Positions 21,124 to 64,000 of a stretch of 64,000 nt of DNA are shown here, in pieces. The DNA is taken from positions 984,496 through 1,048,495 of the forward strand of contig CAWEUJ010000004.1 of the NCBI GenBank assembly GCA_963812205.1. Direction: 5' to 3'. The notes beneath the pieces are model-generated. The model did no database searches. It was not told where the DNA came from and saw only the letters and a list, made by a program, of their open reading frames with translations. The translations under genes and the position numbers were made by a program. The stretch's first letter is position 1. Every line of letters starts with the position of its first letter. Source of the DNA: an uncultured Actinomycetes bacterium (GTDB taxonomy: Bacteria > Actinomycetota > Acidimicrobiia > IMCC26256 > PALSA-610).

Positions 21124-21900
21124 CTAGACGATCGCGCCGGCGCTGGTGTGGACGACCTGGCCCGTGATCTCGCTGCTTCCGGGGAGACAGAGGAAGCAAA
21201 TCACACTCGCGACGTCGCCGGCTTCGGACGCGTGGTGCGTGAGGTTCTCTTGCGGCCCCGAGCTTACGATTGCGTCGTATTGCTCGTCGGCAAGTTCCAC
21301 GCCGATCATCGAAGTCTTCGTGACTCCTGGAGCCACCGCGTTGACATTGATGCCGTGGGGCGCGAGATCACCGGCTGCGACACGCGTCAGTGCGTTGAGT
21401 CCCGCCTTCGAAGCGGCGTAGATCGGTGGCACCTGGCGCGCTTGGAACGCTGCGCTGGACGAGACGTTCACGATGCGGCCGCCACCGCCTCGATCAATCA
21501 TGTGTCGGCCGACCTCGCGCGTGAGGACGAACGGGGCGCGCAGGTTGATGTGCATGACCGTTTCGAATGCGTCATCGGTGAAGTCGACCGTGTTCTGGAG
21601 CTGGCCCGTGACGCCGGAAATCCCTGCACAGTTCACGAGGATGTCGATTCGGCCGAAGCCGTCTACGACGCCGCGAACCAACGGCGGCAGCCCTGAGGTG
21701 TCGGCGAGGTCGACCGTGAATCCCTTCGCGGTTCTGCCGCCGCGCTCGACCTCCGACGCGACACGCGCGAGACCCTCGCTATCGCGATCGACGACGGCGA
21801 TATTCGCGCCGTACTCGCTCAGTGCCAACGCGGTCGCGCGACCAATGCCCGAGGCACCGCCGGTGACGAGCGCGACGTGGTTTTCGAGCAGTGATGTCAC
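21124..21900 (-). CDS. short-chain dehydrogenase/reductase (SDR)
   Basis: Motifs are TGGASGIGRA, NCAG, and S...YAASK as the catalytic triad. The GTG at 21900 gives a normal SDR N-terminus (VTSLLENHVALVTGG); the tracked start at 21966 would add 22 aa. Confidence 0.8.
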   Translation of the reverse strand: MTSLLENHVALVTGGASGIGRATALALSEYGANIAVVDRDSEGLARVASEVERGGRTAKGFTVDLADTSGLPPLVRGVVDGFGRIDILVNCAGISGVTGQLQNTVDFTDDAFETVMHINLRAPFVLTREVGRHMIDRGGGGRIVNVSSSAAFQARQVPPIYAASKAGLNALTRVAAGDLAPHGINVNAVAPGVTKTSMIGVELADEQYDAIVSSGPQENLTHHASEAGDVASVICFLCLPGSSEITGQVVHTSAGAIV

Positions 21901-22028
21901 GGGCGATCTCAGCGCTGCTGCGGCTGTTGGTTCATCGCGCTGAAGCCGCCTGTGAGGAGGTAGCACCTTTCGTCCGAACCGTCGGCCGGCATCGGTCCTC
22001 CTGTGCCGTGGCGGAATGACACGCGAAC

Positions 22029-22046
22029 GTGACAGTGTAGTGTCAC
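22029..22046. promoter_or_regulatory. cluster operator motif, copy 1: GTGACA GTGTAG TGTCAC
   Basis: Inverted repeat in the divergent gap between the SDR (-) and the TauD-relic/SDR/ligase unit (+). Confidence 0.7.
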
Positions 22047-22101
22047 GTTACGGTGCGGCTCGATAACGGTCAAGGCGCGGGCCGCCGACAGGAGAACAAC
22101 A

Positions 22102-22356
22102 ATGGCTGCAGCCTCGCAACTCGAGGCCCGCGAACTAACGCCGGAGTTCGGTGCCGAGATCGTCGGACTTGAACCGAAGCAGCCGCTCGATTCTGAGACG
22201 GGCGAGTTCCTTCGATACCTGTTCGACCAGCGCGGTCTACAGCATGCGCGCCCGAACGTCCTCAACGATGGCCCGACGCGTACGCTGCGGAAGGTGGCGT
22301 TCCCTCTTCCCAAGCTCAACCGCGACGAGCTTCCGTCCTACAGCCGCGCCGAATGA
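22102..22356 (+). pseudogene. TauD/TfdA dioxygenase relic with an in-frame internal deletion (84-aa mini-ORF)
   Basis: The first ~42 aa (LEARELTPEFGAEIVGLEP...LFDQRGL) align with the N-termini of the intact paralogs at 48818 and 49696. The last ~40 aa (QHARPNVLNDGPTRTLRKVAFPLP...) align with their C-termini. The HxD...H core is absent. The stop overlaps the next start (ATGA at 22353-22356). Confidence 0.6.
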
Positions 22357-23135
22357 ATCCGTTCACCCTGAAAGGGAAAGTCGCGTTGGTTACCGGAGGC
22401 GGGCGCGGCATCGGCGCGACGATCGCGCGCGTGTTCGCCGAGGCCGGAGCTTCTGTCGCGGTCGCGGCCCGCACCGCCGATCAAGTTGCATCGGTCGCTC
22501 ACGAAATCACGTCGGCCGGCGGTCGCGCGATCGCTCTGACGGCGGACCTGTCCGACGCGGATCAGCTTCCCGATGTGATTCAGCGAACCGTTGGCGAACT
22601 TGGTGGTCTCGACGTGCTCGTGAACAATGCGGGCGGGGGAACCTCGCCCCCCTTCGTCGACACCCGTATCGAGCAGCTGGAGGCCGCGTTCCATATGAAC
22701 GTCGCGGTGCCGTTCGAGTTGGCACGGCTCGCGCTCCCGCATCTGCTCGAGCGGCCGGGCGCGTCGATTCTCAACATGAGCTCGATGGGCGCGCGTAAGG
22801 CAGCGCGGGGGAACCTCGCGTACCACGTTGCGAAGGCTTCGCTGGCGCACATGACGCGCCTCATGGCCGCCGATCTCGGGCCCCGCGTGCGCGTCAACGC
22901 GCTCCTCCCCGGTGCGATCGAAACCGCGGCGCTGGGAGGGGTTCTCGAGGCCCGGCCTCAGCTCCGGGAGCTGCTCATCGAGCACACGCGTATGCGCCGC
23001 ATCGGCGCTCCGAGCGACGTCGCGTATGCGGCACTGTATCTCGCTTCCGATGCTGCGTCATGGGTCACGGGTGTCCTCTTCGACATCAACGGCGGCGAGG
23101 TCGACGAACTCATGGCGTCGCAACCCGACCTCTGA
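22353..23135 (+). CDS. short-chain dehydrogenase/reductase (FabG-like SDR)
   Basis: Motifs are TGGGRGIGAT, NNAG, and S...YHVAK. Confidence 0.85.
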   Translation: MNPFTLKGKVALVTGGGRGIGATIARVFAEAGASVAVAARTADQVASVAHEITSAGGRAIALTADLSDADQLPDVIQRTVGELGGLDVLVNNAGGGTSPPFVDTRIEQLEAAFHMNVAVPFELARLALPHLLERPGASILNMSSMGARKAARGNLAYHVAKASLAHMTRLMAADLGPRVRVNALLPGAIETAALGGVLEARPQLRELLIEHTRMRRIGAPSDVAYAALYLASDAASWVTGVLFDINGGEVDELMASQPDL

Positions 23136-23149
23136 TACGCCCATCTGAC

Positions 23150-24727
23150 ATGACGACGATTCCGACGCTTCTCCGCAGCAGCGCGGCGCGGTTCGGAGGG
23201 CGCGACTACATCGTTACCTCCGAGCGTCGGCTCAGCTTCGCCGAAGCCGAGCTGCAATCCCGTCGACTTGCGAAACGGCTACTGAAGGCGGGCGTCGGCA
23301 AGGGCACGCGCGTCGGGATGGTGTTCCCCCAGGGGCCCGACTTCGTCGTGGCCTTTCTCGCAATCACGCGCATCGGAGCGCTCGCGGTTCCGCTGAGTAC
23401 GTTCTTTCGTGCGTCCGAGCTACGTCGCGCGGTAAGGCACGCGGACGCGCACGTGCTGCTCGCCTCGCGCGGCGCGGAAGCGTTGTTCGAGTCGACGTGG
23501 GCAGAACTGCCGAGCGCACTGGACGCCGAACTGTTTCTGAACAGCGCTCCGTACTTGCGACAGGTCTGGATCTGCGGGGGCGGCAGTGATCGCGCCTGGG
23601 CGATCGACACGCCCGACTTCACGCAGCTCGAAGACGAGAACGCGATCAGTGACGCCTTGTTGGAAGCGATCGAATCCGAGGTCACTCCCGCCGACGCCAT
23701 CGTCATGGTTCATACGTCGGGCGCGACGGCCGAACCGAAGGCCGTCGTGCACACGCACGGCGCGCAGGTTCGGCACGGTCGAGCGATGGCCGCGCTCCAC
23801 GGCGTCACCGACGAGACACGCAGCTTCACGACGATGCCCTTCTTCTGGGTCGGAGGACTCACGGTGATACTCCTGAGTCATCTCCATGCCGGTGCAACCG
23901 TCATCACGATCGAACGCGCCGACGCATCGCTGATGCTCGACCTCATCGAGAAGACGCATCCGACGCGGCTCATCGGATGGACGTTGGTCGAACGCATCAT
24001 GGCGGATCCGGCATTTGCTGATCGAGATCTCACGTGGCTGCTTCCCCTGCAGATTCCTTCGATGCTCGCGCCGGGACGGCGTCACAACTCCCTCGGGATG
24101 ACCGAGACCTCCGGGCCGCACACGGGAGTGCCATATCCCGAGAACACGGCCGATTTGCCGGAACGCCTGCGCGGGTCGTTCGGCGCGCCGCTGGCGGGCA
24201 TTCGACACAAGATCGTGAACCCTGAGACAGGATCGATCGTGGCGGAAGGCGACGAGGGCGAGATCTGCGTGCGTGGCTACAGCCTCATGGACGGGCTGTA
24301 TAAGAAAGAGCGCGGCGACACGTTCGACGTCGACGGCTGGTACCACACCGGTGACCGCGGTTTCTTTCGCGATGGGCTCTTGTTCTTCACGGGTCGACGG
24401 TCAGAGATGATCAAGACGGGTGGCGCGAACGTCTCGCCGCGCGAGGTGGAAGCGGCACTGGAGGCGTTGGCAGAAGTGAAGGCGGCGTTCGTCGTCGGGG
24501 TGCCGGACGATGAGCGGGGCGAGATCGTCGGCGCCGTGGTGTGTCCGGAGCCGGGGTGTCGGCTCGACCCGGCGGCGTTGACCGAACGACTGCGCGCTGA
24601 TTTGTCGAGCTACAAGCTTCCGAAGCGCATCGTCGTCGTGCCGTATGACGATGCGCCGTGGTTGGCGTCTGGCAAGATCAGCAAGCCTCGCATCGGTGAG
24701 TTGCTCCTGAGTGAAGCCGACGAATGA
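23150..24727 (+). CDS. acyl-CoA synthetase / AMP-dependent ligase
   Basis: Start at the internal ATG 23150 (MTTIPTLLRSSAARFG). The AMP-binding core is VHTSGATAEPKAV, with YHTGDRG and KTGGANVSP, and a C-terminal SGKISK lysine. Confidence 0.85.
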   Translation: MTTIPTLLRSSAARFGGRDYIVTSERRLSFAEAELQSRRLAKRLLKAGVGKGTRVGMVFPQGPDFVVAFLAITRIGALAVPLSTFFRASELRRAVRHADAHVLLASRGAEALFESTWAELPSALDAELFLNSAPYLRQVWICGGGSDRAWAIDTPDFTQLEDENAISDALLEAIESEVTPADAIVMVHTSGATAEPKAVVHTHGAQVRHGRAMAALHGVTDETRSFTTMPFFWVGGLTVILLSHLHAGATVITIERADASLMLDLIEKTHPTRLIGWTLVERIMADPAFADRDLTWLLPLQIPSMLAPGRRHNSLGMTETSGPHTGVPYPENTADLPERLRGSFGAPLAGIRHKIVNPETGSIVAEGDEGEICVRGYSLMDGLYKKERGDTFDVDGWYHTGDRGFFRDGLLFFTGRRSEMIKTGGANVSPREVEAALEALAEVKAAFVVGVPDDERGEIVGAVVCPEPGCRLDPAALTERLRADLSSYKLPKRIVVVPYDDAPWLASGKISKPRIGELLLSEADE

Positions 24728-24789: not shown

Positions 24790-24812
24790 AATTGCCCCGC
24801 GAGGAGCGCCGC

Positions 24813-26162
24813 ATGACCGTGACCGCCAACGACCGGGGATCTTCCTCTGCCGCCACTTCAGAGCCCTACGTCATCGTCTCGTGCGACACGCACATCGGTC
24901 CGCGTCTCGAGCAGGAACTCAGGCCGTACTGCCCCAAGGAACTGCTCGACGACTTCGATGCGTTCGCCGCCGGCATCCAGCAGAAGCGGGAGGCGGCGGC
25001 CGCCCGGCGCAAGAAACTCTCGTTCGGGGGCAACGACAACATCGGCGACGACTGGGGCGTGCGCTTCACCAACCTCGAAACCGAGGGCCACTACGACATG
25101 CACGCGCGCATACGCGATCTCGACAACGACGGCGTCGCGGCCGAGGTGATGTTCCACGACAGCCAGAACGGCGAGCCGATTCCGTTCCAGACCGAATCGA
25201 TCCTGATGCGCGGCGCCGATACCCGCGGCCAGGACTTCAATCTGCTCCGCGCCGGGCAACGCATGTACAACCAGTGGCTGGCCGACGTGTGCTCGATCGA
25301 ACCCGAGCGCCACATCGGGCTGATGCACCTGCCGATGTGGGACATCGACGCCGCAGTCGAAGAACTCACGTGGGCGCGCTCGCAGGGTTTGAAAGGCGTC
25401 AACTTCCCATCGCCGAAGCCGTACCTCACGCCGTACAACGACCCGGCATGGGAGCCGTTCTGGTCGGCGTGCGAAGACTTCGGCGTGACCTTCTGCAACC
25501 ACGGCGGCGCGGGCTCGAGCGGTGGCATGGGCCCCGGCGCGATGTCGATCGCGAAGTACGAGATCTCGATGATGGCGCGGATCTGCCCCATGGACCTCCT
25601 CATCTTCGGCGGCGTGTTCGAGCGGCACCCGAAGCTGCGCCTCGTGACGACCGAGTCGCCGGGCTTGTGGTGGAACTTCGTGCTCCAAGAGATGGACAGC
25701 ATCTATCTCACCGACACGCACAGCTACGGCCCCTCGGAGAAGCAGCGCGTTCCGCGCATGCCGAGCGAGTACGCGCGGGAGCAGGTGTTCATCGGTGCAA
25801 GCTTCCAGGCTCGCTTCGAGGCCGAGGACGCGATCGCGCAGGACTACGTCGACCGGATCATCTGGGGTTCCGACTACCCCCACTTCGAGGGCACCTACCA
25901 GAAGGACGCGACCGGTCCCAACGGCGAACCCATGACCTGGGCGTCGTTGCGTTTCACATACGCCGGGTTGCCGTCCGACGAAGTGGCGCGCATGCTCGGC
26001 AAGAACGCGATGAACGCGTACGACCTCGACTATGACGCGCTGAGGCAGGTGTCGGCGCGTATCAACGCGCCGAGCTACGACGACCTCAACGCGGAGAAGG
26101 TGGAGGCGCGCCCGAAGGACTCCGGCCACCTTGCGTTCCGCACGTTCGGCTTCTGGGCTTGA
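24813..26162 (+). CDS. amidohydrolase-2 (PF04909-like, ACMSD/LigI/LigW superfamily) metal-dependent hydrolase/decarboxylase
   Basis: ATG 24813 follows GAGGAG. The N-terminal metal ligand region is VSCDTHIGP and the C-terminal region is IIWGSDYPHFEG. 449 aa. Confidence 0.8.
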   Translation: MTVTANDRGSSSAATSEPYVIVSCDTHIGPRLEQELRPYCPKELLDDFDAFAAGIQQKREAAAARRKKLSFGGNDNIGDDWGVRFTNLETEGHYDMHARIRDLDNDGVAAEVMFHDSQNGEPIPFQTESILMRGADTRGQDFNLLRAGQRMYNQWLADVCSIEPERHIGLMHLPMWDIDAAVEELTWARSQGLKGVNFPSPKPYLTPYNDPAWEPFWSACEDFGVTFCNHGGAGSSGGMGPGAMSIAKYEISMMARICPMDLLIFGGVFERHPKLRLVTTESPGLWWNFVLQEMDSIYLTDTHSYGPSEKQRVPRMPSEYAREQVFIGASFQARFEAEDAIAQDYVDRIIWGSDYPHFEGTYQKDATGPNGEPMTWASLRFTYAGLPSDEVARMLGKNAMNAYDLDYDALRQVSARINAPSYDDLNAEKVEARPKDSGHLAFRTFGFWA

Positions 26163-26368: not shown

Positions 26369-28156
26369 ATGGGGGCTGACGGATTCGACTTCGATCCCGT
26401 CGCACTCAAGAAGAAGTACGACGAGGAGCGCGACAAGCGGCGGGCGATGCGGCCAGAAGGTCTCGCCCAGTTCCGCTCGATGACTGGCGAGCTCGAGCAC
26501 TACGCCGAAGACCCGTACACCCCCGTCGAGGAGCGAGCCCCGAAGCGGGTCGAGACCGATGTCGTGATCGTCGGCGGCGGGTTTGCCGGGATGCTCGCGG
26601 CGGCGCGCCTGACGAAGGAGGGCATCGACGACTTCCTCGTCCTCGAGCGCGGCGGAGATTTCGGGGGCACGTGGTACTGGAACCGCTACCCGGGTGCGGC
26701 ATGCGACGTCGAGTCGTACATCTACCTGCCCCTCCTCGAGGAGGTCGGCACGGTCCCCTCCATGAAGTACGTGTTCCAGCCGGAGATCTTCGCGCACTGC
26801 CAGGCCTTCGGTCGGACCTTCGACTTGTATCGGCGAGCGCTGTTCCACACCCGTGTTATCGACGCTCGCTTCGACGAGGCGACGTTCCGGTGGGTCATGA
26901 AGACCGACCGCGGCGACGAGCTGCACGCGCGGTTCGTCATCGTGGCCTCCGGCCACTACCGGGAGCCGAAGCTGCCGGGCATCCCCGGCATCGAGACCTT
27001 CTCCGGCCACAGCTTCCATACGAGCCGCTGGGACTACGACTACACGGGCGGCGCCCCGGGCGAGCCGATGGTCGGCCTCCGCGACAAGGCCGTCGGGATC
27101 GTCGGCACCGGTGCGACCGGAATCCAGTGCATCCCGCAGCTGGCGAAGGACGCCGGGCACCTCTACGTCTTCCAGCGCACGCCGTCGTCGGTCGACGTCC
27201 GGGCCAATGCACCCACTGATGTCGAGTGGTTCAAGTCCCAGCCGCCGGGTTGGCAGCAGGAGCGGATGGAGAACTTCGTCGCGCACTACCGCGGCACCGA
27301 CCCGGTCGATCTCATCCAGGACGGTTGGAGCCAGCTCATACACGGGATACAACGGCGAGCGAAGCCCGACATGACTGCGGAGGAGATGGCCGACCTGCTG
27401 CAGATGGTGGACTTCGAGATCATGGAGCGCATCCGCAAGCGGGCCGAGACCGTGGTGCGCGACCCGAAGACCGCCGAGGCGCTCAAGCCTTGGTACAACT
27501 GGCTGTGCAAGCGCCCGTGCTTCCACGACGAGTACCTCGAGGTGTTCAACCAGGACAACGTCACGCTGGTCGACACCGAGGGCCGAGGCATCGACCGCAT
27601 CAGCGGCAACGTCATCGTCGCCAACGGCGAGGAGTTCGAGCTCGACCTGTTGATCTTCGCCACGGGGTTCGAGTTGTCCCCGTACGAGGAAGGTTCCCCG
27701 CTCCCGGTGACCGGCCATGATGGTCGCACGCTGGCCGAGAAGTGGAAGGAGGGAGCCACCACGCTGCACGGCCAGCACGTGCACGGCTTTCCGAACCTGA
27801 TGCTGTCGACGACGCGCCAGGCCTCGTGGGAGAACAACTTCCCCTTCTCGCAGGACGTTGTGGCCACCCACCTCGCCAAGTTGATCCGCCACGCCCTGGA
27901 CGATGGCGTCGCGACCTTCGAGGTCACGGCGGAGGCGGAGGCGGAATGGGTCAGCTTCCATGAGGAGAAGAGCCGGCCGTCGCACGCGCGGTGGAAGGAG
28001 TGCACGCCGAGCTACTTCAACCAGGAGGGAAGCGGCGACGACCAGCGCATCCTGCGAAACGGCGGATTCGGCGGCTCGATCATCGAGCTGCGCGACATCC
28101 TCGCGGCGTGGCGGGAGGAGGGCATGCCCGGCCTGACGATGACGAGCGAGGCATGA
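26369..28156 (+). CDS. type I Baeyer-Villiger monooxygenase (FAD/NADPH, cyclohexanone-monooxygenase family)
   Basis: The first dinucleotide fold is VVIVGGGFAGM, the BVMO fingerprint is FSGHSFHTSRWD (FxGxxxHxxxWD), and the second fold is VGIVGTGATG. 595 aa. Confidence 0.85.
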   Translation: MGADGFDFDPVALKKKYDEERDKRRAMRPEGLAQFRSMTGELEHYAEDPYTPVEERAPKRVETDVVIVGGGFAGMLAAARLTKEGIDDFLVLERGGDFGGTWYWNRYPGAACDVESYIYLPLLEEVGTVPSMKYVFQPEIFAHCQAFGRTFDLYRRALFHTRVIDARFDEATFRWVMKTDRGDELHARFVIVASGHYREPKLPGIPGIETFSGHSFHTSRWDYDYTGGAPGEPMVGLRDKAVGIVGTGATGIQCIPQLAKDAGHLYVFQRTPSSVDVRANAPTDVEWFKSQPPGWQQERMENFVAHYRGTDPVDLIQDGWSQLIHGIQRRAKPDMTAEEMADLLQMVDFEIMERIRKRAETVVRDPKTAEALKPWYNWLCKRPCFHDEYLEVFNQDNVTLVDTEGRGIDRISGNVIVANGEEFELDLLIFATGFELSPYEEGSPLPVTGHDGRTLAEKWKEGATTLHGQHVHGFPNLMLSTTRQASWENNFPFSQDVVATHLAKLIRHALDDGVATFEVTAEAEAEWVSFHEEKSRPSHARWKECTPSYFNQEGSGDDQRILRNGGFGGSIIELRDILAAWREEGMPGLTMTSEA

Positions 28157-37937: not shown

Positions 37938-38035
37938 ACCAAGGTCTGCTGGAACGAGATCGGTATCGCTCGCCACTGCCCCAGATGTGAACCAGCCTGA
38001 CACTGAGCTTGACGCTATACGAGGTCGGCCATATC

Positions 38036-50596: not shown

Positions 50597-50627
50597 TTTG
50601 ACGTTTGTCGAGCGGGGGGATCCGGCA

Positions 50628-55880: not shown

Positions 55881-57008
55881 ATGAGCCTGACCAGTGCCGA
55901 GCGAGACGAGCTTCGCTCGACCGCGCGCGACCTGCTGGGCCGGGAGAATGTGCGCACCTCCGTGGCCGAGGCGCGCGGGTTCGATCGCGATCTGTGGCGT
56001 CAGATGGTGGAGCTGGGCTGGACCACGATCCATGTGCCCGAAGGGCTCGGCGGCGCGGGGTGCGGGTACGCCGACGTCGCCGTCGTTCTCCACGAGATGG
56101 GCCGCGCCGTGACGTCTTCGCCGTTTCTCGCGAGCGCGGTGCTCGCGACCAGCGCGCTGTTGCTCGCGGCTCCCGACGGTGGGGCCCACGAGCAGCTCGG
56201 CGCGCTCGTCAGAGGCGACGCGATCGGGACCGTCGCGCTCGCGAGCTCTGACGGTTCCTACGAGCTGTCACGGGTGACGACAACCTGGCGGTCGTCGGGC
56301 GCGTCGGTCCGCCTCACGGGCGCATCCGGATTCGTGCTCGATGCCGACCTCGCCGACGTCCTGATCGTGACTGCGCTCGACGGCGACGGAACCGTTGCCC
56401 TCTTCGCGGTCGACGGTCGCGCGCCGGGCGTCCGAATTGAACGAGCCCCGACGGTTGACCAAACCCGACGCCTCTTCAGCGTGACGTTCGACGACGTTGA
56501 GGTCGCGACCGAGCGCATGCTCTGCGACCCGGGTCGACAAACTGAAGAGCTGCTCGACGACGTGCTCTCCATCGGCGCCATCGCGTCGTCGTGCGACGCG
56601 GTCGGCGTCGCGGAGCGGGCACTCGACGGCGCGGCCGAGTATGCCAAGACACGTGTGCAGTTCGGCAAGCCGATCGGATCGTTTCAGGCCGTGAAGCACC
56701 ACTGCGCCAACATGGCCATCGCGGTCGAGGCAAGCCGGGCCGCGGTACGCGGCGCGACGGAGGCACTTGATGGCGACCGCGCGGACTGGGCGCGGAACGC
56801 GGCAGCAACCGCGTCCTACGTGGGGCCTGCGTGCTCCCACGCGTGTTCGCTCGCATTGCTCGTCCACGGCGGCATCGGATTCACATGGGAACACGAGTCG
56901 CACCTCTATCTGAAACGGGCGAAACTCGACGAAGTGTTGTTCGGCACGCCGTCGTGGCATCGTCGCCGCCTCGCCGACGCCGTCTTTCCCGCCTTGGCGG
57001 CGTCGTGA
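55881..57008 (+). CDS. acyl-CoA dehydrogenase-family protein (beta-type, C-terminal GGTxEIxRN motif absent)
   Basis: 375 aa with the ACAD fold (TRVQFGKPIGSFQAVKHHCANM). The C-terminus reads LFGTPSWHRRRLADAVF. Confidence 0.8.
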   Translation: MSLTSAERDELRSTARDLLGRENVRTSVAEARGFDRDLWRQMVELGWTTIHVPEGLGGAGCGYADVAVVLHEMGRAVTSSPFLASAVLATSALLLAAPDGGAHEQLGALVRGDAIGTVALASSDGSYELSRVTTTWRSSGASVRLTGASGFVLDADLADVLIVTALDGDGTVALFAVDGRAPGVRIERAPTVDQTRRLFSVTFDDVEVATERMLCDPGRQTEELLDDVLSIGAIASSCDAVGVAERALDGAAEYAKTRVQFGKPIGSFQAVKHHCANMAIAVEASRAAVRGATEALDGDRADWARNAAATASYVGPACSHACSLALLVHGGIGFTWEHESHLYLKRAKLDEVLFGTPSWHRRRLADAVFPALAAS

Positions 57009-58220
57009 CAAAGCACACGCCGCGCGAGCTGAACGAAGCAACGATGGTCGAGGTCCGTCGCCGCATCGGTATCCCGGTGCGCTACTCGCCTCGCCAGCAC
57101 AACGAGGCGTCGTCGACAGACTCGTTCCGTCACTTCGCGCTCGCGTACGGCGACGACAACCCGCTCTACATCGACCCGGCATACGCGCAGCGGTCGTCGT
57201 GGGGGTCGTCGATCGCGCCGCCGCTGTATCCGTTTACAGCCGGCGTCGCCCGGCCGGTCCAGCTCTCGGACGACGAAAAGGCGCTGATGAAGTCCGGCGA
57301 TCCGCTGGCCGGCATCGGTCAGTACATGTGCGGCGAGCGCTGGTTGTTCCCGAAACCGATCCGTGCCGGCGACGTCTTGTGGCAGACGCAGACGCTGCAC
57401 TCCGCCGATCTGCGGCCGAGTTCGTTCGGCGGCGGGACGGGTGCGCTCGTCTCGCACCGGGTCAGCTGGGAGGACGACCGCGGCGCGCCGTACGCGTTGC
57501 GGTTCCTCGATTTCTGGCACGCGGATCGCGAGAAGTCGAACGCGGCGGGCAAGAACCGCACCATTGAGCGCCCGTACTACACCGCGGACGACCTGGCACG
57601 CATCGACGCGTGCTACGAGGCCGAGGAGGTACGCGGCGCGCAGCCGCGGCTCGCGAGCGAAGTGCAAGTCGACGACCCGCTCGGCCCGATCGCGAAGGGA
57701 CCCACGAGCGTGACCGACATGGTGGCGTGGCACGCTGGTGTCGGCTGGGGAATGTACGGCGGCGGCGCGTCGAAGGTGGCGTACAAGAACCGCAAGCGGA
57801 TTCCGAAGTTCTACACGGCGAACGACCTCGGCTTCTGGGACTCGGCCCAGCGGTGCCACTGGGACGACGCGTGGGCGCAGCGCATGGGCCACCCTGGCGC
57901 TTACGACTACGGCGTCATGCGTTCGAACTGGATGGTTCATCTCGTGACCAACTGGATGGGTGACAACGCGTGGATCTGGAAGATGTCCGCATCCGTCCGC
58001 AAGTTCAACTACCTCGGCGACATGCATTTCATGTCGGGTGTCGTTCGGGAGGTCGACAAGGCGGGGGACACCGTCACGGTGGACGTGTGGGGCAAGAATC
58101 GAGCGCGGCGAAACCACCTGTGACGGGCGCATTGTCGTGATCCTTCCGCCCGCGAGTGGCGGCCACGCCATCATTCCCGAATACGACGATTCGCAGGTTC
58201 CGAAAGCGTCGGCGCCGTGA
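57005..58220 (+). pseudogene. MaoC-like double hot-dog (R)-specific enoyl-CoA hydratase, +1 frameshift near 58089-58102
   Basis: GTGA overlap with the ACAD stop. The body runs to ...DTVTVDVWGKN in one frame. The conserved end (I)ERGETTCDGRIVVILPPASGG...* continues in the +1 frame and stops at 58218-58220, overlapping the next GTG. Confidence 0.7.
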
Positions 58221-60364
58221 GCGATCACGCACGACGGGCCGAGTTCCTCACCGGCGTCAGTGTGCTCGAGCTCGGCGACGGTGTGGCCGGCGCGGCTGCC
58301 GCCAACATCCTCTGGTCACTCGGCGCGAATGTCACGACCGTGATCGACGGCTCAAGTCCGCACCGTCGTGCGCGGCCGCGTGTGCTTCGCGCCGGCGCCG
58401 AGGTGAGCTTGCTCTCCATCGTTCTCGACCGCGGCAAACACTGCGCTCGCACGCTCGACGATGTTGACGTCTCGGCGTACGATGTCGTGCTCTTCGACCG
58501 GGTAATTGGGCCGCGCGGTGCGCTTGCGTCGTTCGCCGATCGCGACGCGTACCTCGAATACGTCGCGCGTCATAACCGGAGCGCCTGGATAACGGTCAGC
58601 GCGTTCGGTCTGACTGGCCCACGTGCAGGCGACGCCGCAACGGAGCTCACCGTCGCCGCGGCCGGCGGCATGCTCTCTGCCGTGCGCGACGAGCGCACGG
58701 GCCAGCCACTCAAGCTCGGCGGTCAGCAGTCGCTCCTCAACACCGGCCAAGCCGCGGCGCTTGCCGCGTGCCACGCGATCGATCTCGCCGCGGGTGATGA
58801 ACCGGTGCACCTTGATCTGTCAGCGGTCGAGGCGACCGTGGCGATGGGTCCGGTGCTCGAGGTCGGTGGCCTGCTCCTGAACACAGGCAGTCTCGGCGGC
58901 GCGAAACGTTATGGCGCGCCGGCTTCCTTCTACGAGTGCACCGACGGACTCATCCGCATCTCGGCAATGGAAGACCACCAGTGGCAAGGGGTGGTCACAG
59001 CCATGGGATCGCCGGAATGGGCGGACAAGTTCGCGACGGTTCAGGCTCGCATTGATGCCACCGACGACGTCGACGAGTACGTCTCCGCCTGGGCCCGCAC
59101 GCGTTCCAAGGGGGATGCAGAGGCGGTTCTGCAGGCGAACGGTGTTCCCGCTACCGCGGTGTACTCGCCGGAGGAAATCCTTGCGTCGCCGCAGCTCGCG
59201 CACCGCGATGCCTTCGAACCGATTGCGATTGGTGACGGGCGCGAAGCGAAGGTCGTCGGCTTGCCGTTTCGCATCGTCGACCGCGGAACGACCGTACGCC
59301 GCCGGGCGCTTTCGGGATTGCGCATGCTGGAAGCGAGTCGGGTTCTCGCAGTTCCGCTCGCGGGCGCCATGCTCGGCGCCTTGGGTGTCGAGGTGACGAA
59401 GCTCGAGGATCTTCCGCGTCTCGACATGTACCGGCGTCGCGGTCCGTACATCGACGGTGAGGCGGGCATGGAGCGGTCGGCGTACTTCGCACTCATGAAC
59501 CACTCCAAGCGGAGCGCGGCGTTCGATATCGACGCCGACCGCTCGCGCCTCGACGCGATGCTCGACGCAACCGACGTGGTGATCGAGAATCTCGGACCCA
59601 AGCGCGCCGGTGCGTTGGAGCTTGGCGCGACGACCGCGTTGGCGCGACACCCCGACCTGCTGGCGGTGACCTCTTCGGGCTTCGGGCTCGATGGTCCGCA
59701 CGCGCGCTACCGCGCCTATGCATACAACCTGCAAGCGTCGTGCGGGCTTGGCTACCTCACGCGTAACCAAGAGGGCGAGAGCGCCGAGATCGACATCGCA
59801 TGGGCCGACCTCATCGCTGCGTACTCCCTTGCGACGATCATCGCCGCCTGGGCCGTCGGGCCGGAGGGCAACGCGGGCGCAGGCGTCGACTTCGCGATGG
59901 CCGACCTCGTTGTGGCTCACTTCAACGACTGTGTCGCGGCAGCCAGCCTCGATCCTGAATCCGACGCCTCGGTCGATCGGGCAAACGAGCTGACGCCCTA
60001 CGCGCCGTGCGGCGTCTATCCGACGCTCGATGGATGGATCGCGATTTCGGTCGATGACGACGAGCATCTTCGGCAGCTCACGAAGGTCTTGGGTGCCGAT
60101 GCGACCTCCGACGCGCAGATCGCGGACGCGACGCGTGGGCGTCACGCATCAGACCTCGCGGGAGAGTTGCGTGAGGTTGGCGTGCTGGCTGAACGCGTGC
60201 TCGACGCCGCCGACCTGCTCGCCAGCGAACAGCTCACCGCGCGCGAGTTCTTCGTGCCGGTCGAGCATGCCGAGTGGGGGCGCCGAGGTCTTGTCGGCCT
60301 GCCCTGGCGGCCTCTCGGCGAAGCACCATTTCCGCTCGGCACACCGCCGCATCTCACGCAATAG
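58217..60364 (+). CDS. double-domain family III (CaiB/BaiF) CoA-transferase
   Basis: 715 aa. Domain 1 is VSVLELGDGVAGAAAANILWSLGANV and domain 2 is LRMLEASRVLAVPLAGAMLGALGVEVTKLE, with ...TPYAPCGVYPTLDGWIAISV. Confidence 0.8.
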   Translation: MSDHARRAEFLTGVSVLELGDGVAGAAAANILWSLGANVTTVIDGSSPHRRARPRVLRAGAEVSLLSIVLDRGKHCARTLDDVDVSAYDVVLFDRVIGPRGALASFADRDAYLEYVARHNRSAWITVSAFGLTGPRAGDAATELTVAAAGGMLSAVRDERTGQPLKLGGQQSLLNTGQAAALAACHAIDLAAGDEPVHLDLSAVEATVAMGPVLEVGGLLLNTGSLGGAKRYGAPASFYECTDGLIRISAMEDHQWQGVVTAMGSPEWADKFATVQARIDATDDVDEYVSAWARTRSKGDAEAVLQANGVPATAVYSPEEILASPQLAHRDAFEPIAIGDGREAKVVGLPFRIVDRGTTVRRRALSGLRMLEASRVLAVPLAGAMLGALGVEVTKLEDLPRLDMYRRRGPYIDGEAGMERSAYFALMNHSKRSAAFDIDADRSRLDAMLDATDVVIENLGPKRAGALELGATTALARHPDLLAVTSSGFGLDGPHARYRAYAYNLQASCGLGYLTRNQEGESAEIDIAWADLIAAYSLATIIAAWAVGPEGNAGAGVDFAMADLVVAHFNDCVAAASLDPESDASVDRANELTPYAPCGVYPTLDGWIAISVDDDEHLRQLTKVLGADATSDAQIADATRGRHASDLAGELREVGVLAERVLDAADLLASEQLTAREFFVPVEHAEWGRRGLVGLPWRPLGEAPFPLGTPPHLTQ

Positions 60365-60376
60365 GAGAGGAAACAG

Positions 60377-61304
60377 ATGGGGACGCTCGAGGGGAAATCC
60401 GTCGTGATTACGGGCGGTGGTCGGGGCCTCGGACGCGCGACTGCGATTGCCGCCGCCGCGGAGGGCGCGCAGGTCGTCGTCGCCGACTACGGCGGCGAGC
60501 TCGATCAGCGCGCAGGGGCGTCGTCCGCCGCGGCTGACGAGGTCGTGTCCGAGATCACCGCCACTGGCGGCCGAGCGATCGCAGCCGCGGAGGATGTGTC
60601 GACGATGGACGGTGGCCGGCGCATCGTGCAGGCCGCGATCGATGCGTTCGGCCGTCTCGACGGAATGGTGTGCTTCGCGGGCATCACCGTCATGAAGTAT
60701 CTCTGGGAACTCGAAGAACACGAGTGGGACGACGTCCTCGCGGTGCACCTCAAGGGCCATTTCAGCTCGCGCGCAAGCTGCCGCGCGCGTGATGATGCCG
60801 CAAGGCGCGGGCAGTCTCGTGTTCATCGGCAGCGGCGCGATGAATGGCACGCCCAACATGCCCAGCTACGCGACCGCGAAGGCGGGCATCCTGGGGCTGA
60901 CATGGAGCACCGCGTACGCGCTGGCCGAATACGGCATCACGACGAACTGTGTCGTTCCCAGTGCGGCGACGCGCATGTCCGACAGCATTTACGGCACCGC
61001 GGAGATGTTGAGTGATCAGGTCGGCGAGACGATTCGCAGCGATCTCGCCGCCGGTACCTACCGAGATCCGGCCAACGTCGCGCCGATCGTGCTCTACCTC
61101 CTGAGCGACGCGGCGCGACGTGTCAACGGCCAGGTGTTCCGCGCCCAGGGGTACGAGGTCGCACACCTCGGAGGTCTCGTGTGGGACAAGGTCATGAAGA
61201 ACGAGGGACCGTGGGACGTTGCCACGATCGAGGCGCGGCTTCCCGAAGAACTTGGTCCCACGCTCACACTTCGGCCGGTCCCGTGGCCGGAGCGGCCGCG
61301 ATGA
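60377..61304 (+). pseudogene. SDR of the MFE-2/Hsd4A type, +1 frameshift near 60754-60763
   Basis: The N-terminus is VVITGGGRGLGRATAIAAAAEGAQVVVADYGG to ...AVHLKGH. It then continues in the +1 frame as SARAQAAARVMMPQGAGSLVFIGSGAMNG...YATAKAG to stop 61302-61304. Confidence 0.75.
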
Positions 61305-61314
61305 GCTACCTTTT

Positions 61315-61332
61315 GTGACAGTGGACTGTCGG
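61315..61332. promoter_or_regulatory. cluster operator motif, copy 9: GTGACA GTGGAC TGTCGG
   Basis: It lies 8 nt upstream of ATG 61340. The right half-site has one mismatch. Confidence 0.6.
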
Positions 61333-61339
61333 TTTTGCA

Positions 61340-62119
61340 ATGGGTGACGAGCTGAGAGTCGAGCGGCGCGGACCGGTGCTGGTCGCGACGATCGACCGTC
61401 CGGAGCGCATGAACTCGCTGAGCCCGGACATACACGAAGACTTCCTTGCGACGTGGACGTCGCTGCGGTCCGACCCTTCGGTGCGCGCCATCGTGATCAC
61501 CGGCGCGGGCGAGCGCGCATTCTGCACGGGCATGGATGTCAAGGCAGCGGCCGAGCGCGGCAGCCTGCGGCCGGTGAAGGATGACGTGCACGAGGAACTG
61601 CGCCTCACGCCGCTGCACTGCGATGTCTGGCTCCCGACGATCGTTGCCGTGAACGGCGTCTGCACCGGAGCCGGCTTGCACTTCATCGCCGACGCGGACG
61701 TGGTGGTGGCCTCGTCGTCGGCGACCTTCCTCGACACGCATGTGAGCGTCGGGCAGGTGACGGCCATCGAGCCGATCACGTTGCTCCCACGGATCGGACT
61801 GGGCAACGCGCTCCGGCTCGCGGTGCTCGGCCGCCACTTGCGCATCAACGCGCAGGAAGCGTTGCGGATATCCCTCATCGACGAAGTTGTCGAACCCGAG
61901 GTGCTGCTCGAGCGCGCCGTCACGCTCGCCGAACAGGCCGCATCGGGATCGCCGGCCGCCATCGAGGCGTCGAAGCGAGCGATACGCAGTGCGCTCGAGC
62001 GGCCGATGTCCGACGCCATGCAGTACGGCTGGGAGCTGTTGCTCGCACAGCGCGAGCACCCCGACAGCATCGAGGGCCCGAGGGCGTTCGCAGAGAAGCG
62101 GGTACCGAAGTGGCAGTGA
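61340..62119 (+). CDS. enoyl-CoA hydratase/isomerase family protein
   Basis: Motifs are ATIDRPERMNS, TGAGERAFCTGMD and VNGVCTGAGLHF. Confidence 0.85.
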   Translation: MGDELRVERRGPVLVATIDRPERMNSLSPDIHEDFLATWTSLRSDPSVRAIVITGAGERAFCTGMDVKAAAERGSLRPVKDDVHEELRLTPLHCDVWLPTIVAVNGVCTGAGLHFIADADVVVASSSATFLDTHVSVGQVTAIEPITLLPRIGLGNALRLAVLGRHLRINAQEALRISLIDEVVEPEVLLERAVTLAEQAASGSPAAIEASKRAIRSALERPMSDAMQYGWELLLAQREHPDSIEGPRAFAEKRVPKWQ

Positions 62120-63330
62120 CCGAAGTCGACGCGGTCATCACCGAAGTCGATCAGTTCTTGCGCGAGCTGCTGCCCACCGCGTGGGTGAGAGCAGTCGACG
62201 ACGACGACTTCGCAAAGCTGGGTGTGGTGCGCCGAGAAGGAAATCCGGACGAGCTGTGGCGGCAGATCGGCGCCGCCGGGTACATCGCACCGACGTGGCC
62301 CGAGAAGTACGGCGGTCTCGGCGTCACGCCGAAGGTGGGCGCCGCGATTGCGCGCGCGCTCGGCCGGTATCGCATTCCGGGTTTCAGCAATACGGTTGGC
62401 GTCGACCTCGCCGGTCCGGCCATCTTGCGCTGGGGGAGCGACGAGCAGAAGGAGCGGTTCGTGCGCGCCATCGCGCGCTACGACGACATCTGGTGCCAGC
62501 TGTTCTCCGAGCCGGGCGCGGGTTCCGACCTCGCGACCCTGGCGACAAGAGCGGAGCGCGACGGCGACTCGTGGACCCTTCGCGGCCAGAAAGTCTGGAC
62601 GAGCTTGGGAGATGTGTCGCGGTACGGCCTGCTGCTGGCGCGCACGGATCCCGATGTGCCGAAGCACAAAGGGATCACCGCGTTTCTCGTGCCGATGGTG
62701 CATCCCGGCGTCACGGTGCGGCCGCTTCGGCAGATCACCGGCGACGCGGAGTTCTGCGAAGTCTTTTTCGACGACGCGCGCATCGACGACTCGATGCGGT
62801 TGGGCGCCGTGAACGAGGGCTGGCGGGTCGCCATCTCCGTGCTGATGAACGAGCGGCAGTCCGTGAGCGGCGGCGATGCCGCGCTGCCCGGCACCGTCAC
62901 GGGCCGATCCGTTGCCGGCCTCATCCAGCGGCACGCGCCGGTCACCGACCCAGTGCTGCGACAACGCCTCGCGCAGGCCTATATCGAGGACCGGCTCGTG
63001 ACGATGACGAAGCAGCGGGCTGCTGCCCGCCGCCGCGCCGGGCAGCAGCCGGGACCGGAAGCCTCGGTCACGAAGCTGTTCTTCAGCGAGCACACGCAGC
63101 GCCTGCAGAACCTCGCGGTCGACCTGGAAGGTGTGGCCGCACAGGCCTGGTCCGAGCACGATCGCTGGATGCAGAACACCGCGTGGTCCTTCCTTCGCGT
63201 GCGTTCGAAGACAATCGCGGGCGGGACGTCGGAGGTGCAGCGCAACATCCTCGGTGAACGCGTGCTGGGGCTGCCGAGAGAGCCGGAGCTCGATCGATCC
63301 ATACCGTGGTCCAAGGTTCCGCGTTCGTGA
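62110..63330 (+). CDS. acyl-CoA dehydrogenase
   Basis: 406 aa. Motifs are WCQLFSEPGAGSD and IAGGTSEVQRNILGERVLGLP. It overlaps the upstream stop. Confidence 0.85.
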   Translation: MAVTEVDAVITEVDQFLRELLPTAWVRAVDDDDFAKLGVVRREGNPDELWRQIGAAGYIAPTWPEKYGGLGVTPKVGAAIARALGRYRIPGFSNTVGVDLAGPAILRWGSDEQKERFVRAIARYDDIWCQLFSEPGAGSDLATLATRAERDGDSWTLRGQKVWTSLGDVSRYGLLLARTDPDVPKHKGITAFLVPMVHPGVTVRPLRQITGDAEFCEVFFDDARIDDSMRLGAVNEGWRVAISVLMNERQSVSGGDAALPGTVTGRSVAGLIQRHAPVTDPVLRQRLAQAYIEDRLVTMTKQRAAARRRAGQQPGPEASVTKLFFSEHTQRLQNLAVDLEGVAAQAWSEHDRWMQNTAWSFLRVRSKTIAGGTSEVQRNILGERVLGLPREPELDRSIPWSKVPRS

Positions 63331-64000
63331 CGACCGCAGCGAACGATCCTACGAGCCTCGCCGACATCGCCCTACGCCGCTGCCAACGCGACCCGGAAAC
63401 AACGTTCTTGCTTACGGTTGATGACCGAGAGCCCGATGCGATTCGCACGCACACGTATGGCGAGATCATCGAACGCGCGCGGGCCTTGGCGCGCGTGCTC
63501 GCAGAGGCGGGCGTCTCTCGCGGGCATCGCGTCGGTTGTTACCTCCCCAACTCACCGAGCTGGGTTGTCGCGTCGCTTGCCACCTGGTTCAACGGTGGCG
63601 CAGTCGCGGCCGCCGGAACGCTGCTGCCGGCAACGGAAGCCGCCGGATTGTTCGCGTTGGCAGATGTCGCGACCGTCGTGACGACGACCGACGCGCCGGA
63701 GCTCGCGGATCGCTATCACGTCGTACGCATCGACGACGACGGGTGGCTTGGAGACGGCGCCGATGTGGTCGGCGATGACTTCTCGTTGCCCGGTCCCGAC
63801 GACCTCGCCGTCGCCATCTTCACGTCGGGGACGACGGGCCGCCCGAAGGGCATCACGCACACCCATTACGACATCGTCGCGGCCGCTCGCCGCGTCGCGG
63901 CGGGGTACGCGCGCAGTAGTGACTACCGACCCGATCCGGCGCCGGCGCATCTCGCGCCCGGTCTGTTGTTCAATCCGTTCGGTCACATGGCGGGTTACAG
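63327..64000 (+). CDS. acyl-CoA synthetase / AMP-dependent ligase (partial, 3' end outside window)
   Basis: This gene is not in the ORF track because no stop falls inside the window. GTG 63327 overlaps the ACAD stop (GTGA). My own translation gives ...HTYGEIIERARALARVLAEAGVSRGHRVGCYLPNSPSWV... and the AMP motif FTSGTTGRPKGITHTH. Confidence 0.8.
   Translation, partial: MTTAANDPTSLADIALRRCQRDPETTFLLTVDDREPDAIRTHTYGEIIERARALARVLAEAGVSRGHRVGCYLPNSPSWVVASLATWFNGGAVAAAGTLLPATEAAGLFALADVATVVTTTDAPELADRYHVVRIDDDGWLGDGADVVGDDFSLPGPDDLAVAIFTSGTTGRPKGITHTHYDIVAAARRVAAGYARSSDYRPDPAPAHLAPGLLFNPFGHMAGY

Follow-up and report, generated by a model that had tools for sequence, protein, structure and literature searches.

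A conserved acidimicrobial gene cluster with predicted dinuclear oxygenases and an igr-like cleavage set, a candidate for the catabolism of bulky alicyclic acids

The igr operon of Mycobacterium tuberculosis, which combines a cytochrome P450, a pair of acyl-CoA dehydrogenases (ACADs), a hot-dog hydratase and the aldolase Ltp2 with a DUF35 protein, cleaves off a side chain at a ring carbon through dehydrogenation, hydration and a final retro-aldol step. In the tailoring of platensimycin, a CoA ligase, PtmU3, 2-oxoglutarate (2OG) dioxygenases, short-chain dehydrogenases/reductases (SDRs) and a P450 act on CoA esters of diterpenoids. Here we describe a gene cluster that shares parts with both systems. 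It lies in a stretch of 64,000 nucleotides, referred to as the window, from the genome of an uncultured Acidimicrobiia bacterium (GenBank assembly GCA_963812205.1, contig CAWEUJ010000004.1, forward-strand positions 984,496 to 1,048,495; all positions below are those of the window). Between 21124 and 64000 it holds 39 genes, each coding for an enzyme or an enzyme accessory, and not the roughly 45 genes counted in an earlier account made from the sequence alone (the sequence-only reading). We put at about 0.6 the probability that the cluster serves the catabolism, at the level of CoA thioesters, of a bulky alicyclic or branched acid of terpenoid-, resin-acid- or steroid-like type, a view of level and target that the sequence-only reading had also taken and that the gene content supports.

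Several described enzymes bear on this locus. Retro-aldolases of the Ltp2 type carry their catalytic Tyr in a YD[H/C][F/Y] motif, and the general acid is either Tyr344 (TcLtp2) or the Cys of the motif (CtSal) (PMC12329534). Amidohydrolase-related dinuclear oxygenases (AROs) are TIM-barrel proteins of family PF04909 that are recognized by two motifs, D-x-H on the first β-strand near the N-terminus (ligands of site 1) and D-x-P-H-x-[D/E] in a C-terminal loop (ligands of site 2) with at least about 200 residues ahead of it, and the low-potential members have Val or Ile between the motif Asp and His (PMC13154177). Their mid-barrel ligands are the equivalents of His211 and Glu265 of AibH2 (PMC7782822). 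DitZ hydroxylates diterpenoids with a diiron center (PMC13154177), PtmU3 is a β-hydroxylase that accepts CoA-ligated diterpenoids (PMC7782822), and the 2-aminoisobutyrate hydroxylase AibH1H2 of Rhodococcus wratislaviensis is an (αβ)2 assembly with one dinuclear and one reduced-site PF04909 subunit (PMC10401708, PMC7782822). High-potential AROs typically have no Rieske ferredoxin as a neighbor. Finally, the dit cluster of Pseudomonas abietaniphila and Paraburkholderia xenovorans, responsible for the degradation of abietane resin acids (tricyclic diterpenoids), encodes P450s, the ligase ditJ, the sterol-carrier-like ditF, SDRs and a DitZ-type ARO (PMC13063091, PMC10710418, PMC13154177), and its ditA1 gene is described as essential (PMC10710418).

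Genes were called with a self-trained codon model, since the raw list of open reading frames (ORFs) was full of spurious frames at the window's G+C content of 0.62-0.72. Pfam was run on every called gene of the window, solved structures were compared by searches of the Protein Data Bank (PDB), and NCBIfam models were scored against their equivalog cut-offs. Pfam recovered every enzyme family listed in the sequence-only reading, with MFE-2-like members among the SDRs, which were counted as six. Like the dit cluster, the region is a large mixed cluster with P450, CoA ligase, SDR and DitZ-type ARO genes; unlike it, the window has no counterpart of the Rieske oxygenase DitA1A2A3 or the extradiol dioxygenase DitC (Pfam, motif regex scan), so that any ring opening would not proceed via an aromatized ring. 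The literature searched contained nothing specific on an Acidimicrobiia cluster of this type or on a catabolic pathway combining PF04909, P450 and CoA enzymes. The cluster thus belongs to a known kind, in which alicyclic acids are broken down as CoA esters by igr-like cleavage and numerous oxygenases, with an enzyme set that is not described as far as the literature was searched. Its distinctive parts are the several AROs, one with a fixed motif variant and one a degenerate partner, together with a SnoaL-like protein of a rare family, a DUF35 protein encoded on its own and a fused double hot-dog hydratase. The relatives that we found are uncultured Acidimicrobiia, present as metagenome-assembled genomes (MAGs) or metagenome contigs only, whose diet is largely deduced from genomes, and the cluster offers a defined, conserved and experimentally tractable candidate for the oxidation of recalcitrant alicyclic acids.

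Predicted oxygenases among the PF04909 proteins

Five proteins of the region match Pfam PF04909 and had been taken for amidohydrolases in the sequence-only reading: AH1 (24792-26162, plus strand), AH2 (31261-32454) and the trio at the core of the cluster, AH3 (38082-39353), AH4 (39427-40638) and AH5 (40640-41824), all three on the plus strand, with AH5 starting 1 nt after AH4. Four of them, AH1, AH2, AH4 and AH5, were searched against solved structures, and in each case the top matches were PtmU3 (6omp) and DitZ (8uyr). AH1 matched PtmU3 with an E value of 6e-30, AH4 matched DitZ over its full length (4e-38), and AH5 matched PtmU3 with 5e-31 and DitZ with 1.5e-27. The full ARO signature is present in three proteins: AH1 has DTH (residues 32-34) and DYPHFE (361), AH2 has DNH and DYPHPE (356), and AH3 has DGH and DVPHAE, the C-terminal motifs of all five proteins lying at residues 345-361. 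AH4 combines a regular DGH with DFPHSS, in which the last position differs, and AH5 has EAH and HFPFED and so neither motif. In an alignment all five proteins share the mid-barrel His, and the bridging Glu is kept in AH1-AH4 and replaced by His in AH5. With diiron oxygenases as best matches and the complete signature in three cases, the best evidence speaks against the amidohydrolase label; AH1-AH3, and less certainly AH4, are probably oxygenases rather than hydrolases, with a predicted dinuclear metal site and a predicted hydroxylating activity.

The odd motifs of AH4 and AH5 are not the result of decay, because the same patterns are kept across orthologues: DFPHSS occurs in 118 of 120 AH4 orthologues (77-100% identity), and AH5 orthologues retain EAH and HFP[FY]ED. 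By analogy with AibH1H2, AH4 and AH5 may form a heteromer, since here too two PF04909 genes are adjacent, 1 nt apart, and one product has a reduced metal site. Unlike the AibH1H2 locus, the window contains no gene for the Rieske protein AibG or the flavin reductase AibF, and in PDB searches DitZ and PtmU3 rank ahead of AibH1H2 for both AH4 and AH5. The AH4 clade would be missed by the published ARO motif filter, and its neighbor AH5 suggests that heteromeric AROs extend beyond AibH1H2. A tblastn search of AH4 against plasmids returned just 26-32% identical homologues.

The residue between the motif Asp and His, which from our own reading of the PtmU3 and DitZ sequences we take to be the γ-1 position of the ARO literature, is Thr, Asn or Gly and not Val or Ile. 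Together with the lack of a Rieske ferredoxin near these genes, a feature shared with high-potential AROs, this suggests that the AROs of the cluster fit the high-potential (diiron) class. If the PF04909 proteins are read as AROs, the locus therefore encodes eight or nine predicted oxygenases and not four, and the label 'amidohydrolase' would have concealed three to four of them.

The window AROs resemble PtmU3 and DitZ in their D-x-H and D-x-P-H-x-E motifs (AH1-AH3), and the same locus encodes a CoA ligase, 2OG dioxygenases, SDRs and a P450, partners that we take PtmU3 to have as well. They differ in their low sequence identity, in the four to five copies per locus, and in the fixed D-F-P-H-S-S of AH4 and the conserved degenerate copy AH5. 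The resemblance raises the question whether the region could be a biosynthetic cluster for the tailoring of a terpenoid product, as in platensimycin biosynthesis, and the weak matches of the Baeyer-Villiger monooxygenase (BVMO) and TauD proteins to the pentalenolactone enzymes PtlE and PtlD would agree with this. In addition, about 1,600 of some 17,000 AROs lie within biosynthetic clusters (PMC13154177). However, neither the 64 kb nor the annotated collinear loci contain a terpene synthase, prenyltransferase, polyketide synthase, non-ribosomal peptide synthetase or resistance/export gene, the gene content is dominated by β-oxidation genes, an electron-transfer flavoprotein (ETF) and CoA-transferases, and the recurrence of the backbone in many metagenome contigs and MAGs seems to suit core catabolism better. 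Unlike that of PtmU3, the genomic context is therefore catabolic, and we consider a biosynthetic role highly improbable.

Besides the AROs, the predicted oxygenases include a P450 (29992-31194, plus strand; Pfam p450) with the heme loop FSFGPHFCLG and an ExxR motif, and two Fe/2OG dioxygenases on the minus strand, TauD1 (48818-49663) and TauD2 (49696-50577). Both TauD proteins have an HxD motif and are intact, as had been stated before, and their nearest solved relative, RdpA, is distant (E 1e-24). The sequence-only reading regarded TauD enzymes as foreign to alicyclic routes, a view that is hard to maintain given that 2OG dioxygenases take part in platensimycin tailoring.

An igr-like dehydrogenase, hydratase and retro-aldolase set

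The set of P450, ACAD pair, hydratase, retro-aldolase and DUF35 protein is shared with the igr system. The Ltp2-type protein (42739-43914, plus strand; Pfam Thiolase_C_1), which has an SCP2-thiolase fold by these matches, matched TcLtp2 (6ok1) over residues 12-376 with an E value of 3e-81. It has YDCF at residue 290 where TcLtp2 has its catalytic Y294DHF, and the Tyr aligned to Tyr344 of TcLtp2 is kept (SEGYIHGMN), so that both catalytic tyrosines of TcLtp2 are present, the motif itself being as in TbSLP and close to the YDCY of CtSal. In the pairwise alignment a Leu (GGSVALTM) stands where TcLtp2 has Cys (GGGAACGT), in the column that we take to be the canonical nucleophile position of thiolases. 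Because of this Leu, the thiolase-like protein is taken not to be a true thiolase, and by the same reasoning the region would have none. The downstream DUF35 gene (43911-44297, plus strand; Pfam zf-ChsH2 and OB_ChsH2_C) overlaps the Ltp2 gene by 4 nt, and this pair is kept in all collinear loci. Upstream, coupled to Ltp2, lies the gene for a SnoaL-like protein of 296 amino acids (41852-42742, plus strand). Its family is small, with 238 representatives at E ≤0.001 among 1.84 billion, and by sequence it has no solved relative in the PDB. This protein could be usable as a marker for the cluster type. Single-sequence AlphaFold models of the SnoaL-like protein (pLDDT 41) and of the hydratase (pLDDT 31) were unusable.

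ACAD1 (54680-55870) and ACAD2 (55881-57008) are separated by 10 nt and are followed, with a 4-nt overlap, by the MaoC-like hydratase (57005-58123), all on the plus strand, and this order is kept in at least eight contigs. The best NCBIfam models were PimC-large for ACAD1 (227 bits) and IpdE2 (188 bits) and PimD-small (154 bits) for ACAD2; all these matches are below cut-off, and they represent large and small subunits of heteromeric ACADs. A single-sequence PDB search found no close solved relative of the hydratase, whereas a profile built from 12 orthologues matched HadA/HadC/ChsH1-like hot dogs with its N-terminal half and HadB/ChsH2-like hot dogs with its C-terminal half. The hydratase is thus a single fused double hot-dog protein that is only remotely similar to the igr hydratase ChsH1-ChsH2 (E ~0.01). 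Further differences from the igr system are that the DUF35 protein is encoded by a separate gene instead of forming the tail of the hydratase as in ChsH2, that the aldolase motif is YDCF and not YDHF, that the aldolase lies about 10 kb from the ACAD and hydratase genes, and that the genes for steroid ring degradation are missing.

These differences bear on a specific alternative, namely that the cluster carries out steroid or bile-acid degradation, with removal of the side chain followed by degradation of the rings. The igr-like content (P450, ACAD pair, ChsH-like hydratase and Ltp2-like aldolase with DUF35), the weak matches of the ligase to the CasG and FadD3 models, and IpdE2 as the top NCBIfam match of ACAD2 all point in this direction. 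However, all scores for steroid models are far under the cut-off, the match of the hydratase to ChsH1/ChsH2 is marginal, and neither the window nor the sampled collinear loci contain a KshA-type Rieske protein, KstD, HsaA-D or class I IpdAB. The absence of these hallmark genes had already been noted, and it was borne out by Pfam: there was no match to PF00355, PF00848, extradiol dioxygenase families or PF01144 among the window genes, and no coding frame had a Rieske motif, although such genes could lie elsewhere in the genome. Steroid degradation in the strict sense is therefore, in our view, rather improbable.

A conserved backbone with added modules

Neighboring genes at the core of the cluster overlap by 4 nt according to the gene calls, which indicates translational coupling. 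The sequence-only reading had suggested a check of neighborhood conservation, and this was done using the BVMO, and then AH4, the hydratase and the ligase Lig1, as synteny anchors; the loci found are labelled L001 and so on. A backbone proved to be collinear, at 60-95% identity, across independent metagenome and MAG contigs (L085/L106, L086/L142, L087, L102, L144, L090, L096 and L110-L116). Its order is TauD-SDR2-Lig1, AH1, P450, ECH3, AH3-AH4-AH5-SnoaL-Ltp2-DUF35, a 61-amino-acid ORF and TauD2, continuing to CoA-transferase 1, from where it runs through ACAD1-ACAD2-hydratase-CoA-transferase 2 and a variable slot, occupied by SDR5 or an ARO, to ECH4-ACAD3-Lig2. Given this collinearity among independent contigs, the genes have not come together by chance.

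JGI contig Ga0247727_10001682 (L085, L106) is collinear with the window from 38 to 64 kb and beyond, and Ga0073934_10002115 (L142, L086) carries TauD-SDR2-Lig1, AH1, P450 and ECH3, then AH3 through the Mo hydroxylase genes coxMSL to TauD2 and SDR4. L087 and L102 contain the core without CoxMSL, cupin and SDR4 and lead directly into CoA-transferase 1, ACAD1, ACAD2 and the hydratase; beyond the hydratase, L102 continues with CoA-transferase 2, an AH1-like ARO, ECH4, ACAD3 and Lig2. The same blocks occur in another orientation in L144, about 8 kb from the Lig1 orthologue, and six further contigs repeat part of the run from ACAD1 to Lig2.

The individual backbone genes fit this picture. SDR2 (22353-23135) and the acyl-CoA AMP-ligase Lig1 (23150-24727), both on the plus strand, have orthologues in the same order in L142 (82% and 72% identity), and Lig1 and AH4 orthologues reside together on contigs of 43 to 63 kb. 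AH1 has a 91% identical orthologue in L086 and a 67-70% identical copy after CoA-transferase 2 in L096, L102 and L116, while the P450 has orthologues in L086 (88%), L087 (68%) and L144 (65%). Orthologues of the crotonase ECH3 (35377-36162, minus strand; Pfam ECH_1) (76-87% identity) are neighbors of the AH3/AH4 core or of Lig1 in L086, L087 and L144. The SnoaL-Ltp2-DUF35 order is kept in L085, L086, L087, L102 and L144, and TauD2 has 60-82% identical orthologues in L085-L087, L102 and L106. The double-domain family III CoA-transferase 1 (52116-54592, minus strand; Pfam CoA_transf_3 in both of its pieces) recurs at 66-83% in L090, L096, L102 and L106. Further downstream, all on the plus strand, follow the second double-domain family III CoA-transferase (58217-60364), SDR5 (60377-61304), the crotonase ECH4 (61340-62119), ACAD3 (62110-63330) and the AMP-ligase Lig2 (63306 to beyond 64000). 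The order from CoA-transferase 2 to Lig2 is kept at 58-86% identity in L102, L106, L110, L111, L113 and L116, and several of them have an AH1-like ARO in place of SDR5. Lig2 is cut by the end of the window and in L106 the ligase is followed by a 409-amino-acid CoA-transferase and a dienelactone hydrolase, which agrees with the earlier statement that the cluster runs past the window end.

Between TauD2 and CoA-transferase 1 lie SDR4 (50598-51569, plus strand; 323 amino acids) and a SnoaL_4 protein (51695-52126, minus strand), with orthologues in L106 (84% and 69%). The 61-amino-acid ORF (47951-48136, plus strand) remains in L085, L086, L087, L102 and L144 (59-82% identity), either after CoxL or, where CoxMSL is missing, directly after DUF35. 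Its product contains Cys residues in a CPCG motif and has no Pfam match; it presumably resembles small metal-binding proteins.

Other groups of genes are additions. The first addition consists of a type I BVMO of 595 amino acids (26369-28156), an SGL/SMP-30 lactonase (28153-28995) that overlaps it by 4 nt, and SDR3 (29026-29790), all on the plus strand. The BVMO has the fingerprint FSGHSFHTSRWD at residue 211, in accordance with the type I consensus FxGxxxHxxxW[P/D], as well as GGGFAG at 69 and GTGATG at 246. Its best PDB match was 5mq6 (E 9e-124; PAMO, 1e-79), and its best NCBIfam model was PtlE, with 643 bits against a cut-off of 1100. The three genes stay linked in L001, L002 and L004 (77-92% identity), where the flanks differ, and they are lacking in what was sampled of the collinear contigs L085/L106 and L086/L142. 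These patterns identify the putative BVMO-lactonase-SDR unit as a separately mobile module added to the backbone, and they do not favor the pathway logic of the sequence-only reading, which was built on the BVMO and the lactonase. The module resembles those of cyclopentadecanone and cyclododecanone monooxygenase and PtlE in that a long-form BVMO is coupled to a lactonase and then an SDR, which would fit a path from an alcohol via ketone and lactone to a hydroxy acid; it differs in that the lactonase is an SGL/SMP-30 β-propeller and not an α/β esterase, and in moving independently of the backbone.

A second addition, which is missing between the P450 and ECH3 orthologues of L086 and L087, consists of AH2, a TesB-like thioesterase (32676-33503, minus strand) and the crotonases ECH1 (33510-34445, minus strand) and ECH2 (34521-35354, plus strand). 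The third comprises CoxM (44294-45167), which overlaps the DUF35 gene by 4 nt, CoxS (45160-45639), CoxL (45636-47954) and a cupin (48187-48600), all on the plus strand. CoxMSL is found in L085 and L086 and is missing in L087, L102 and L144. The active-site loops of CO dehydrogenases are AYxCSFR (form I) and AYRGAGR (form II). The loop of CoxL, GRGAYRGPWM, matches neither form, and the CO dehydrogenase reading was rejected; the CO_dehy_Mo_lg model gave 572 bits against a cut-off of 991, and the best NCBIfam model was the glyceraldehyde dehydrogenase α subunit (592 bits, cut-off 790). CoxMSL is, from its sequence features, assigned to the Mo hydroxylases of the xanthine oxidase family.

The fused ETF (36173-37940, minus strand; β-α, about 589 amino acids; Pfam ETF and ETF_alpha) is probably an addition as well, as it is missing at the corresponding position in L086 and L087. 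Among species-representative genomes its matches come almost only from Acidimicrobiia MAGs. Used as a synteny anchor it was uninformative for the backbone, since its best match is 63-64% identical and the neighborhoods differ. Among 58 ETF loci (L006-L060), about 25 have a P450 gene downstream on the same strand and 35 a PF04909 gene; ETF and P450 are separated in L022 by a gene for a DoxX-like membrane protein on the opposite strand. This neighborhood raises the question whether the ETF feeds electrons to oxygenases, rather than only taking them from ACADs.

The region had been described as one supercluster, but the synteny shows a backbone with additions, and its genes are arranged in ten strand runs. 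One could therefore imagine unrelated small catabolic operons in juxtaposition, each for its own substrate and without a single pathway, the more so as paralogue-rich families of this sort occur widely in Acidimicrobiia. The strand runs, the occurrence of the BVMO module in unrelated contexts, the presence or absence of CoxMSL among close relatives, the replaceability of the ETF, of AH2-thioesterase-ECH1-ECH2 and of SDR5, and the ETF neighborhoods of 80 species representatives, which are unlike the window, speak for such a mosaic. On the other hand, independent contigs show about 20 backbone genes in unchanged order and orientation (60-95% identity), Lig1 and AH4 orthologues share the contigs mentioned above, and the core genes are translationally coupled. 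We consider a pure mosaic unlikely.

Gene mixtures of a similar kind were also seen in Mycobacterium and Nocardia. Plasmid pJCM12687 of Mycobacterium branderi (L145, NZ_AP022607.1 35851-60996) encodes an amidohydrolase, a thiolase, an OB-fold protein, a small ORF and an SDR, together with a divergent 820-amino-acid CoA-transferase and a TetR protein, at about 30-40% identity to the window core. As M. branderi is in culture, it may provide an experimental handle on the module. A locus of Nocardia vaccinii shows a comparable gene mix. A known-plasmid origin of the window cluster was rejected, as megablast of 22 kb against PLSDB gave just two short crotonase matches. The nearest named homologues of the BVMO, AH4 and Lig1 are from Acidimicrobiia/Acidimicrobiales MAGs, and the many closer ones are metagenome proteins. 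In exact-protein look-ups, CoxL was not on record and ECH4 gave just a contig of 1.5 kb; the source contig measures 1.58 Mb.

Proposed route, damaged genes and flanking region

Based on gene content, motifs and gene order, catabolism of a bulky acid as CoA thioester could proceed as follows. The acid would be taken up, and its thioester would be made and exchanged by the two AMP-ligases and the two double-domain CoA-transferases. C-H bonds would be hydroxylated by the P450, by TauD1 and TauD2, and by three to four AROs of PtmU3/DitZ type (AH1-AH4), with AH4 and AH5 perhaps acting as an AibH1H2-like heteromer. The AROs would place a hydroxyl β to the thioester at sites where a fully substituted neighbor (a quaternary carbon) blocks the action of acyl-CoA dehydrogenase, and SDRs would oxidize the resulting alcohols. 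Carbon would be removed by ACAD1/ACAD2 and the double hot-dog hydratase, followed by a retro-aldol cut by Ltp2-DUF35 at a ring or branch carbon to give a ketone or aldehyde and a short acyl-CoA, and the crotonases, ACAD3 and SDRs would complete β-oxidation. The additions could extend this route: the BVMO, lactonase and SDR may convert a ring ketone via a lactone to a hydroxy acid, the Mo hydroxylase may oxidize the aldehyde or ketone released by the aldolase or a ring carbon, and the fused ETF and possibly an adjacent B12-dependent mutase and ABC importer may contribute as well.

A more specific proposal, which we put forward only tentatively, is that AH4/AH5-SnoaL-Ltp2-DUF35 forms an undescribed device for C-C cleavage and, with the other backbone genes, would define an uncharacterized pathway of Acidimicrobiia so far seen in metagenomes alone, for alicyclic acids rich in quaternary carbons, such as resin acids or hopanoid/terpenoid debris. 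A heteromeric ARO with a non-canonical loop would β-hydroxylate an acyl-CoA with a fully substituted α or β carbon, and the retro-aldolase would cut the product. If true, this coupling of oxygenase and retro-aldolase would be a new bypass of the β-oxidation block at fully substituted carbons, with relevance for the bioremediation of resin acids, naphthenic acids and terpenoids and for biocatalysis.

Several observations weigh against the catabolic route outlined above. None of the proteins reached an NCBIfam equivalog cut-off, in line with the earlier statement that no known pathway matches, and no step can be assigned by orthology; nor does the cluster content allow a substrate to be named. 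The ARO motif of AH4 is missing its final residue and four ligands are absent from AH5, which makes the oxygenase activity of both uncertain, and the regex scan of the window found no gene that could pass electrons to the P450 or the AROs. With ten strand runs and several added modules, the genes may not be co-expressed as one regulon. This copy of the cluster may be partly inactive unless the frameshifts described below are assembly errors, and the importer and mutase upstream may be part of the cluster, a link deduced from adjacency.

Four genes of the cluster change frame: the ETF around 37665, CoxM around 44735, CoA-transferase 1 around 53885 and SDR5 around 60768. Alignment with intact orthologues showed single-base indels in CoxM, CoA-transferase 1 and SDR5, and inspection of the reading frames placed the N-terminus of the ETF β part in another frame. 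The earlier statement that the cluster has its own fused ETF is therefore correct for the domains, but the gene is interrupted. Intact orthologues measure 290 amino acids for CoxM (L085, L086), 834 for the CoA-transferase (L087) and 622 for the ETF (L022). Homopolymer errors were dismissed as the cause, as the three sites read (CoxM, CoA-transferase 1 and SDR5) are not in homopolymers. The frameshifts could be assembly errors, or recent mutations or pseudogenization. A different type of damage is found near the start of the region, where an ORF of 84 amino acids (22102-22356, plus strand) retains just the two termini of a TauD protein and has lost about 200 residues from the middle in frame. 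At this position L142 has an intact TauD of 286 amino acids ahead of SDR2 and Lig1, and comparison of the two sequences identifies the remnant as a genuine deletion.

At the upstream end, SDR1 (21124-21900, minus strand; Pfam adh_short, E 2e-57) is preceded by a split B12-dependent acyl-CoA mutase on the plus strand, with a large subunit (19019-20695; Pfam MM_CoA_mutase, 692 bits) and a small, B12-binding subunit (20720-21100; Pfam B12-binding). The nearest solved relative of the mutase is the 2-hydroxyisobutyryl-CoA mutase HcmA (4r3u, E 1.8e-165), compared with 1e-135 for methylmalonyl-CoA mutase, and no NCBIfam equivalog cut-off was reached. Divergent from the mutase runs a Liv-type ABC importer (14062-18890, minus strand; Pfam Peripla_BP_6, BPD_transp_2 and ABC_tran), made up of a solute-binding protein (17592-18890), a fused permease-permease-ATPase of 910 amino acids (14817-17549) and an ATPase (14062-14820), and both units directly abut the start of the region. 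The sequence-only reading had found no embedded transporter or regulator and no ferredoxin or reductase next to the P450. Within 21124-64000 this is correct, as the Pfam calls and the motif regex scan gave no regulator, transporter, ferredoxin or Rieske ORF, but the importer lies directly upstream. In relatives, the cluster does include TetR genes and a binding protein, and the Lig1 orthologue of L142 is followed by a Liv-type binding protein that is not orthologous.

The G+C content falls from about 0.70 to about 0.65 near 14 kb. An ORF of 80 amino acids at this shift (13568-13810) corresponds to just the last ~50 residues of an EAL domain, and either a gene cut short at the edge of an insertion or a further frameshift could explain it. 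Because of the G+C drop, the adjacent importer and mutase and the EAL tail, the cluster may begin around 14 kb. Rfam, tRNA and repeat scans of the window gave no riboswitch, mobile element or island boundary, and in a promoter and terminator scan the signal was at chance level. The only RNA features found were tRNA-Lys(CTT) (7687-7761) and tRNA-His(GTG) (9427-9501), both on the minus strand, which flank an epimerase gene with a likely fifth frame change around 8610. Close to the start of the window, the DNA of a Liv-type ATPase gene pair (336-1822) is 72-79% complementary to the ATPase parts at 14062-15458, indicating a paralogous transporter set.

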